This document shows, one piece after another, positions 54,026 through 55,310 of a stretch of 64,000 nucleotides of DNA. Below the pieces are notes generated by a model. The model saw only the letters and a list, made by a program, of their open reading frames with translations. It made no database searches and had not been told where the DNA came from. Source of the DNA: a virus (Duplodnaviria; Caudoviricetes); the IMG/VR virus record IMGVR_UViG_3300018430_000021, positions 160,001 through 224,000 of that record; one strand, written 5' to 3'. Every line of letters begins with the position of its first letter. Within the stretch, counting starts at the first letter, position 1. Made by a program: the position numbers and the translations under genes.

Positions 54026-54184
54026 GAATACATGCAATGTTTTATACTGACGAGACTCGAACTCGCTTCATACGAATTGTAATTGGCATTTGCAAGAGTA
54101 TCTACCAATAAACGTACCCTTTCCTGATACTTTCGGACGCACGTTCTCTCCTACCTTGATCCAATATAGAGCACGCACATATTC
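54026..54184 (-). ncRNA. tRNA-mimic ncRNA (acceptor-like stem + T arm, large insert, extended closing stem)
   Basis: TATATTG/CAGTATA stem stacked on GCGAG-TTCGAGT-CTCGT. Outer stem GAATATGTGC/GCATGTATTC. Confidence 0.6.
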
Positions 54185-54188
54185 TTAG

Positions 54189-54265
54189 TCGGCAACATAG
54201 GACTTGAACCTACATGTAACCATTTACTCTTTCTACGCCTTATCAGAGCGAGGAGATAGATGCCG
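54189..54265 (-). tRNA. Non-canonical tRNA-Ile(GAT)-like RNA, copy 1
   Basis: Acceptor CGGCATC/GTTGCCG, CGCT-CTGATAA-GGCG anticodon arm, GTAGG-TTCAAGT-CCTAT T arm. No D arm in the normal position. Confidence 0.7.
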
Positions 54266-54276
54266 ATAATATTTAG

Positions 54277-54353
54277 TCGGTATCATAGGAATTGAACCTA
54301 CATGCAACCAATTACCCTTTCGACGCCTTATCAGAGCGAGGGGATAGATACCG
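54277..54353 (-). tRNA. Non-canonical tRNA-Ile(GAT)-like RNA, copy 2
   Basis: Acceptor CGGTATC/GATACCG, same anticodon arm, GTAGG-TTCAATT-CCTAT T arm. Covaries with copy 1. Confidence 0.7.
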
Positions 54354-54656: not shown

Positions 54657-54660
54657 GTAG

Positions 54661-54750
54661 AGCTATCTGCAGGATTCGAACCTGCGACGGGGATTTTATC
54701 CACAGCGGAGTTGCAGTCCGCTACCTTCGACCGCTCGGTTACAAGACAGC
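54661..54750 (-). tRNA. tRNA-Cys(GCA) with long variable arm
   Basis: GCTGTCT/AGATAGC acceptor, U73, GCGGA-CTGCAAC-TCCGC anticodon arm, GGAT-AAA-ATCC V arm, GCAGG-TTCGAAT-CCTGC T arm. Confidence 0.85.
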
Positions 54751-54761
54751 TTAATTTTAAA

Positions 54762-54885
54762 TTCCACCGCGTGCTTTTACCGAAGAGCCCGCGAAAACTT
54801 CAGTGGCCTACCACCTTGTTGTTTCATACTAAACACGACCGCTGTTTTAAGGCCGCAGCCTTTTTCGCACAGCGTCACGGCGAAC
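54762..54885 (-). ncRNA. GC-rich structured ncRNA of unknown family
   Basis: Nested stems TTCGCCGTG/CGCGGTGGA and GCGAAAA/TTTTCGC enclosing three hairpins. Confidence 0.5.
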
Positions 54886-54893
54886 TATTTTCG

Positions 54894-55151: not shown

Positions 55152-55310
55152 AAAAAAATAAAAGCGTCACTTTTCGGTGACGCCTTGAAACTCTATAAAT
55201 GAGTATTCTTGGTGTCACCCACCAGTCTTAATAATATACATGCCATAGATTGAGGATGTGGAGCATCCGCAAATCGAAGAACATTAATATGTATATAACT
55301 GGTGAGTCAT
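55152..55310 (-). promoter_or_regulatory. Leader-peptide transcription attenuator upstream of tRNA operon
   Basis: SD AAAGGA and ATG at 55310. Helix 1:2 (55307-55297 with 55227-55217), antiterminator 2:3 (55219-55211 with 55184-55176), terminator 3:4 GCGTCAC-CGAAAA-GTGACGC plus U tract. Confidence 0.75.

Follow-up and report, generated by a model that had tools for sequence, protein, structure and literature searches.

The tRNA clusters of phages have been known for some fifty years to hold extra stable RNAs, as with species 1 and species 2 of phage T4. In the T4 tRNA cluster, which also contains a homing endonuclease gene, rnaC and rnaD adjoin tRNA-Arg. When rnaC, the gene for the 139-nt species 1 RNA, is folded (z = -4.6), its ends are paired, there are two internal hairpins and a canonical T arm, CCGGG-UUCGAAU-CCCGG, is beside the 3′ end strand. 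In a recent T4 transcriptome paper RNAC and RNAD are still described as RNAs of unknown function (PMC9697503). Two RNAs of bacteria are also relevant. The structure of tmRNA is that of the upper half of a tRNA, with processing by RNase P (PMC3985003). The Y RNA known as YrlA has a terminal helix formed from both of its ends together with a module that mimics T and D features of tRNA, and between its T and D arms the acceptor-like stem forms a closed hairpin (PMC4201824).

The element described here, element A, is within a 64,000-nt stretch of DNA (the window) that covers bases 160001-224000 of a 291-kb linear IMG/VR virus record, from a jumbo phage and estimated to be ~70% complete. The record has phage genes for a tail sheath stabilizer, a DnaB-type helicase and an anaerobic ribonucleotide reductase, and ARAGORN finds 42 tRNA genes in clusters across it. 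In the minus-strand cluster that contains element A the order is Tyr, Tyr, a structured segment, a 91-nt Cys, a small tRNA-like unit, Met, a hairpin, two non-canonical Ile(GAT)-like genes (B1 and B2), element A, Ser(GGA), Ser(TGA) and Ser(CGA). No good promoter of its own was found for element A at the locus, and it shares one predicted transcription unit with the tRNAs, between the promoter of the operon and the terminator (Table 1), which supports the proposal of the first-pass annotation that it is made alongside them. The 5′ strand of its outer stem starts directly past the trailer, CTAA, of the tRNA-Ile-like gene upstream, the same trailer being found after the discriminator of several neighbouring tRNA genes, and the 3′ strand stops 5 nt ahead of the first base of tRNA-Ser(GGA). 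On the 3′ side of element A itself, in the internal loop there, CCA and the CTAA trailer of the neighbours are both absent. The outer, acceptor, hairpin and T stems include G·U pairs that would be A·C mismatches on the opposite strand, so the transcribed strand is minus, as for the tRNAs.

Table 1. Positions in the window of element A, its parts and other features of the tRNA operon that are mentioned in the text
Feature	Position	Strand	Description
Promoter of tRNA operon	55409-55381		predicted, sigma-70-like; upstream of cluster
Promoter and leader terminator region	55409-55161		ahead of tRNA cluster
In-frame TAA of leader ORF	55284-55286	minus	upstream of array
Structured RNA of ~140 nt	54752-54890	minus	conserved; between tRNA-Tyr and the 91-nt tRNA-Cys
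tRNA-Cys(GCA)	54660-54750	minus	91 nt
B1 and B2	54188-54352	minus	non-canonical tRNA-Ile(GAT)-like genes without D arm
Element A	54184..54026	minus	159 nt; inside one tRNA operon
Outer stem GAATATGTGC/GCATGTATTC	54184-54175 with 54035-54026	minus	10 bp including 2 G·U
Internal loop, 5′ side, GTGCTC	54169..54174	minus	variable, ATGTTC in L046
Acceptor-like stem TATATTG/CAGTATA	54168-54162 with 54049-54043	minus	perfect 7 bp
D-like segment GATCAAGGTAGGAGAG	54146..54161	minus	stemless, 16 nt, GG-bearing
Hairpin 1, stem AACGTGC/GTACGTT	54111..54145	minus	7 bp; 21-nt loop including AGTATC
Hairpin 2, stem ATTGGTA/TGCCAAT	54082..54109	minus	7 bp; 14-nt loop, GATACT first
20-mer of hairpin 2	54087-54106		identical to groEL codons (see text)
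Linker TACAATTCGTATGAA	54067..54081	minus	possible 3-bp mini-hairpin TTC-GTAT-GAA
T arm GCGAG-TTCGAGT-CTCGT	54050..54066	minus	directly abuts acceptor 3′ strand
Internal loop, 3′ side, AAACATT	54036..54042	minus	AAATTTT in L046
Terminator of tRNA operon	53743-53720		downstream of cluster

Several other features of this array and its relatives merit mention. The ORF in the leader upstream of the array is interrupted by an in-frame TAA specific to the record of the window; TCA (Ser) is at this codon in L029, L038 and L056, giving an uninterrupted leader peptide. The tRNA-Cys(GCA) gene has a long extra arm, which is unusual for Cys, and is identical in L029, and in L056 the tRNA-Cys gene is itself interrupted. 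The conserved structured RNA of ~140 nt that precedes it is also present in G002, L025, L029, L038 and L056 and has no Rfam match; between the window and L029 there are clear compensatory changes in two of its hairpins, GGTGGTAGGCCACT to GGTAGTAGGCTACT in one and the stem CGCGGGC...GCACGCG to CGCGAAT...ATTCGCG in the other.

All the helices that the first-pass annotation had listed for element A are present on the minus strand where it had placed them, as is the general form it had proposed, an RNA shaped like a tRNA with the anticodon half replaced: the tRNA top half is there, with a 95-nt insert below. The 7-bp acceptor is stacked on a 5-bp T stem with a loop that fits UUCRANY, features expected for the tRNA family (RF00005), and in the T arm the conserved tRNA positions G53, U54, U55, C56, R57, A58 and C61 are all present. 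Because the T arm is contiguous with the acceptor 3′ strand, tRNA-like stacking of the two is possible. Counting on from the acceptor, the GG in the D-like segment corresponds to tRNA positions 18-19. The loop of hairpin 1 has a possible inner extension of 3 bp (TCC/GGA). No tRNA is called at element A by ARAGORN or, even at E up to 10, by the Rfam tRNA model. A tRNA as such was rejected, as element A lacks a D stem and an anticodon loop of 7 nt (its loops are of 21 and 14 nt), and so was an intron-containing tRNA, since any internal removal leaves no D arm or 7-nt anticodon loop.

The closest known analogue, judged by likeness of layout, is the T4 species 1 RNA. The order of parts is equal and the sizes are comparable (139 nt for the rnaC product and 159 nt for element A); both are in a phage tRNA operon, with a homing endonuclease gene in that of T4 and homing-endonuclease-like ORFs in arrays related to that of the window. 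The acceptor-like stem of rnaC has mismatches, and rnaC is without an extra outer helix, whereas the acceptor-like stem of element A is a perfect 7 bp inside a 10-bp outer stem. Homology to rnaC was not found: the covariance model built for element A (R1) scored 14.2 bits against the 6 kb of the T4 cluster (E = 0.013), the T arm alone being matched. The homing-endonuclease-like ORFs, which have faint zinc-finger matches and parallel segB of the T4 tRNA cluster, are at differing points of the arrays in L025, L026/L028 and L046, the one in L046 being upstream of the Ile genes.

Element A has no family match in Rfam, whether the whole window is searched at gathering thresholds or the region at E up to 10; the residue is a sub-threshold YrlA match and a tmRNA fragment. 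The first-pass annotation had suggested kinship with tmRNA or with bacterial Y RNAs, and neither suggestion held. As in the tRNA-like domain of tmRNA, the acceptor of element A is stacked on the T arm and the D-like loop is stemless, and from this could be imagined a chargeable tRNA mimic of which the acceptor end is freed by RNase P and 3′ trimming, CCA is added and the product aminoacylated for ribosome entry, with a small ORF perhaps as message. To its credit are A73, an AGGAG 5 nt ahead of the GTG with which a 24-codon frame in the core begins, and a CCA-adding-type enzyme encoded in a complete relative (G002). However, the 3:70 pair (columns 19 and 140 of the alignment) is U-A in each of the three sequence variants available, not the G·U that alanine charging needs; CCA is not encoded, and there is no pseudoknot ring. 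The ARAGORN tmRNA search finds no tmRNA gene in the window or the whole record, the Rfam tmRNA model (RF00023) gives 7.8 bits, on 15 nt, and element A is far shorter than tmRNAs. Its acceptor end is buried by a conserved outer helix, and the small frame stops three codons sooner in L029 and L046 owing to one of the two changes in the core, the other being non-synonymous. Such a mimic is thus very improbable.

The likeness to YrlA is that the ends of element A also form a terminal helix and are associated with a tRNA-like module. That element A is a YrlA-like RNA tethering a Ro60/Rsr protein seems extremely improbable, as the matches to the YrlA model (RF02553), at 19.3 and 18.0 bits, are far under the 69-bit threshold and are driven by the T arm and its flank alone. 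Genes with a TROVE domain (PF05731) were found neither in the ~70%-complete 291-kb record nor in the complete 424-kb G002, though control genomes matched, and the motif GNCGAAN0-1G was not seen in the terminal helix of element A. The topology also differs: the acceptor stem of element A is formed from distal strands, as in tRNA, and that of YrlA is the closed hairpin referred to above.

A coding function was also considered. The small ORFs present are of 24 or 36 codons, the freezing of the core extends to all codon positions, and element A is, on the sequences compared, probably noncoding.

For comparison, relatives were sought by several routes. A helicase search led to the complete relative G002, which has a syntenic array; a 24-mer of tRNA-Ser(GGA) together with homologues of two flanking proteins gave about a dozen further arrays, and useful loci came from tracing the 317-aa neighbour protein and a 269-aa upstream protein through a large protein collection and contigs. 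Element A was found in two metagenomic phage lineages besides that of the window, L029/L033 and L046, so that the comparison is of three sequence variants with one diverged homologue, L046. Of the 159 positions, 2 differ between the L029/L033 version and that of the window, neither of them paired, and this comparison says little because the flanking genes are ~95% identical and much of the array is nearly identical. The L046 version, in which the abutting CTAA trailer and the spacing to tRNA-Ser are the same as in the window, aligns without gaps and has 18 differences, while the gene for the 317-aa neighbour has ~74% DNA identity and 70% protein identity between the two. These differences are very unevenly distributed, as the scaffold (64 positions) has 16 of them and the core (95 positions) has 2 (Fisher p = 9.6e-6), so that the core is 98% identical.

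In the scaffold the pairing is kept. Three pairs change on both sides in L046, two in the T stem (C-G to U-A and A-U to G-C, with the T loop invariant) and one in the outer stem (C-G to U-A), and four further pairs are altered on one side and still paired, one of them within the proposed loop-loop pairing. The outer stem retains 8 of its 10 pairs, with two G·U pairs becoming A-U and the only losses being the two outermost pairs. In the acceptor-like stem one U·G becomes C-G and the remaining six pairs never vary. When, as a control, the 3′ partners were slid by 1-3 columns there were no double changes and pairing was 26-52%, versus 98% for the real partners, and RNAalifold independently recovered the same helices from the three variants. 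Covariation in homologues was where the first-pass annotation had left its reading open to refutation, and for these helices that reading survives, the acceptor-like helix keeping its pairs and the T and outer helices showing compensatory change in L046. Outside these helices the D-like segment has one A to T change in L029/L033 and is identical in L046, hairpin 1 has an invariant stem and one C to T change in its loop in L046, hairpin 2 is invariant in all three variants, and the linker TACAATTCGTATGAA has one C to T change common to L029/L033 and L046. The invariant stems of hairpins 1 and 2 support constraint on the sequence, their pairing being a prediction. From these comparisons element A looks like a strand-specific folded RNA gene under selection, and it is very likely to be functional.

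The pattern of drift and constancy bears on three other explanations. The first is of a decayed tRNA gene or neutral spacer, formerly a class II tRNA and possibly a Ser-like duplicate, of which the lower half was lost and which is kept by linkage alone. The T loop TTCGAGT equals that of the adjacent tRNA-Ser genes, arrays of this type are hot spots of recombination with homing-endonuclease-like ORFs and swapped cassettes, and most relatives are without element A. Nevertheless helices maintained through compensatory changes, and a core 98% identical when a nearby gene is 74% identical in DNA, are unlike neutral decay, and this origin is decidedly unlikely as an account of what element A now is. 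The second explanation is that element A is a cis-acting processing or regulatory element, in which the outer stem, internal loop and acceptor helix would be a nuclease site (RNase III-like or RNase P) that sets the maturation or stability of the Ile-like and Ser tRNAs, the excised RNA having no job. The outer helix is conserved with compensation and is within 4-5 nt of both neighbouring genes, and its helix-loop-helix layout is like that of phage RNase III sites such as those of T7. A processing signal, however, leaves unexplained a 95-nt core that is 98% identical while the helices drift, and relatives with the same flanking tRNAs do without element A; it is accordingly an unlikely explanation.

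The third possibility operates at the DNA level. The core could seem more conserved than it is if phages have exchanged it recently, and a mobile cassette passed from phage to phage by homing or recombination, or a DNA site recognized by a protein, would give a near-identical core. The presence of element A is patchy (window, L029/L033 and L046, and absent from L034 despite a neighbouring protein that is 97% identical), homing-endonuclease-like ORFs are inserted in related arrays, and hairpins 1 and 2 do not vary on either strand. On the other hand, the boundaries of high identity coincide with RNA domain boundaries, the RNA-type compensation in the scaffold points to a folded RNA long kept in both lineages, and no repeat copies of element A were found elsewhere in its own genome. 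This explanation is, on balance, improbable.

Energetically, element A is unremarkable as a single sequence, with a fold energy that is ordinary compared with shuffles (z = -0.8). In the window sequence the pair probability of the outer and acceptor-like helices is 0.85-0.99, that of the hairpin 1 stem 0.95-0.98 and that of the hairpin 2 stem 0.65-0.85; for the T arm it is 0.18, there being a competing helix. The loops of hairpins 1 and 2 have the complementary words AGTATC and GATACT, as the first-pass annotation had noticed, with potential for 6 bp. As 2.6% of shuffles of the two loops have such a complement, and 15% of shuffles have a comparable match between some pair among all unpaired segments, this is by itself weak evidence. 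The extended loop-loop duplex has a calculated energy of -8.2 kcal/mol in the window and -5.6 in L046, and the pairing has one informative change, C-G to U·G in L046. A kissing-loop interaction is plausible on this modelling.

The distribution of element A is narrow. In G002, L025, L027, L031 and L037 nothing occupies the slot that separates the Ile genes from Ser(GGA); other short segments are there in L034 and L038, the latter closed by an 11-bp terminal helix, and L026 has a different conserved unit. Closure by a terminal helix, as in L038, is seen in other spacers of these arrays too. Because most relatives with the same array lack element A it is dispensable, and its absence from L034, in spite of the close similarity of the neighbouring protein, is the behavior of an accessory cassette. 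It co-occurs with B-type Ile-like genes in all three lineages that have it, and the B genes are absent where it is absent. Relatives without element A have ordinary tRNA-Ile genes at the place of B1 and B2. L046 (523-585) has a shorter, 62-nt B-type version, the 5′ part of which is 97% identical.

Most relatives have a further unit, element X, by tRNA-Ser(GGA). It is ~145 nt, with a hairpin and T-run end, and is mostly downstream of the Ser gene (L027:2265-2409, L023:1792-1940) and upstream of it in L026 (L026:2570-2698). Homology between element X and element A was ruled out after alignment.

Other searches yielded no further instance. With isolated GenBank phages, blastn gave T-arm matches to tRNAs only. 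Exact-pattern scans of IMG/VR with three words from element A gave no matches, and a search of IMG/VR for the 317-aa neighbour protein gave none. In bacterial and archaeal genomes the first word had no match and the second had five, all in groEL coding sequence for RGVDTLANA. The 20-mer of hairpin 2 (Table 1) has the same sequence as the groEL codons that specify GVDTLANA in Ectobacillus and Gracilibacillus (L060-L063); the match was judged to be chance, with about one expected in 596 Gb. Model R1 found no additional copy of element A in its own genome, in the related jumbo-phage records G002 and G006 or in ~40 loci, the weak matches being other tRNA-like genes. Among possible antisense targets in the phage's own genome the best match is a 14-mer, with ~0.3 expected by chance, that includes a variable base. 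Pairing of element A with the neighbouring Ile-like RNAs is not above that of shuffles (7.7% did as well), and a local 7-nt match to an Ile-like RNA is not kept in the second copy. Element A represents a new RNA family with a narrow distribution, its kind having been known since T4.

A tRNA-like gene in G002 near 420 kb (L052:680-790) has canonical acceptor, D and T arms and a CTAA trailer, but its anticodon and variable arms are replaced by ~60 nt, so that in this phage group the replacement of the lower half of a tRNA body is a recurrent feature.

We consider it somewhat probable that element A is a chassis derived from tRNA that carries a near-invariant cargo RNA, is cut out by tRNA processing and acts in trans. 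The chassis would be the acceptor-like stem on its T arm, the GG-bearing D-like strand, which could close a tRNA-like elbow, and the outer helix that pairs the ends, all evolving by compensatory change. The cargo would be the 95 nt of two hairpins, with their conserved loops, and linkers that replace the D, anticodon and variable arms. Element A would be transcribed within the polycistronic tRNA precursor and released when the tRNA-Ile-like gene upstream is trimmed at its 3′ end and RNase P cuts at tRNA-Ser(GGA). The freed RNA may then be protected by having paired ends and a fold like that of a tRNA, and the cargo may act in trans on a conserved protein or RNA partner. Two precedents bear on such an arrangement. 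Spacers of E. coli tRNA precursors, such as 3′ETS-leuZ, can serve as RNA sponges once cut out, and with the engineered tRNA scaffold a cargo RNA in place of the anticodon arm is processed and stabilised by the cell. The E. coli spacers are short pairing sites that are unstructured and have no tRNA fold, and the scaffold is man-made; in contrast, the arrangement of element A is natural and has the tRNA fold.

What the cargo acts on is a further matter. It is conceivable, if rather unlikely, that it serves as a phage counter-measure, a tRNA-shaped decoy or inhibitor that titrates a tRNA-recognising host factor and is encoded by an accessory cassette moving with the Ile-like genes among related jumbo phages. 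Candidate factors would be RNase P, a T-box leader or a defence nuclease that cuts tRNAs. Besides its CCA-adding-type enzyme G002 has a gene for an RtcB ligase, so that functions for tRNA end repair and maturation exist in the phage group; neither was found in the examined part of the 291-kb record.

From the perspective of phage tRNA clusters, element A provides an unrelated example of the design of T4 species 1, from an uncultured rumen-type jumbo phage. The contrast between a drifting frame and a frozen insert separates the likely chassis from the likely working part and gives a defined sequence of 95 nt. Its presence or absence among close relatives, together with that of the Ile-like genes, suggests an accessory role, possibly in interaction with the host, rather than a core one in translation.
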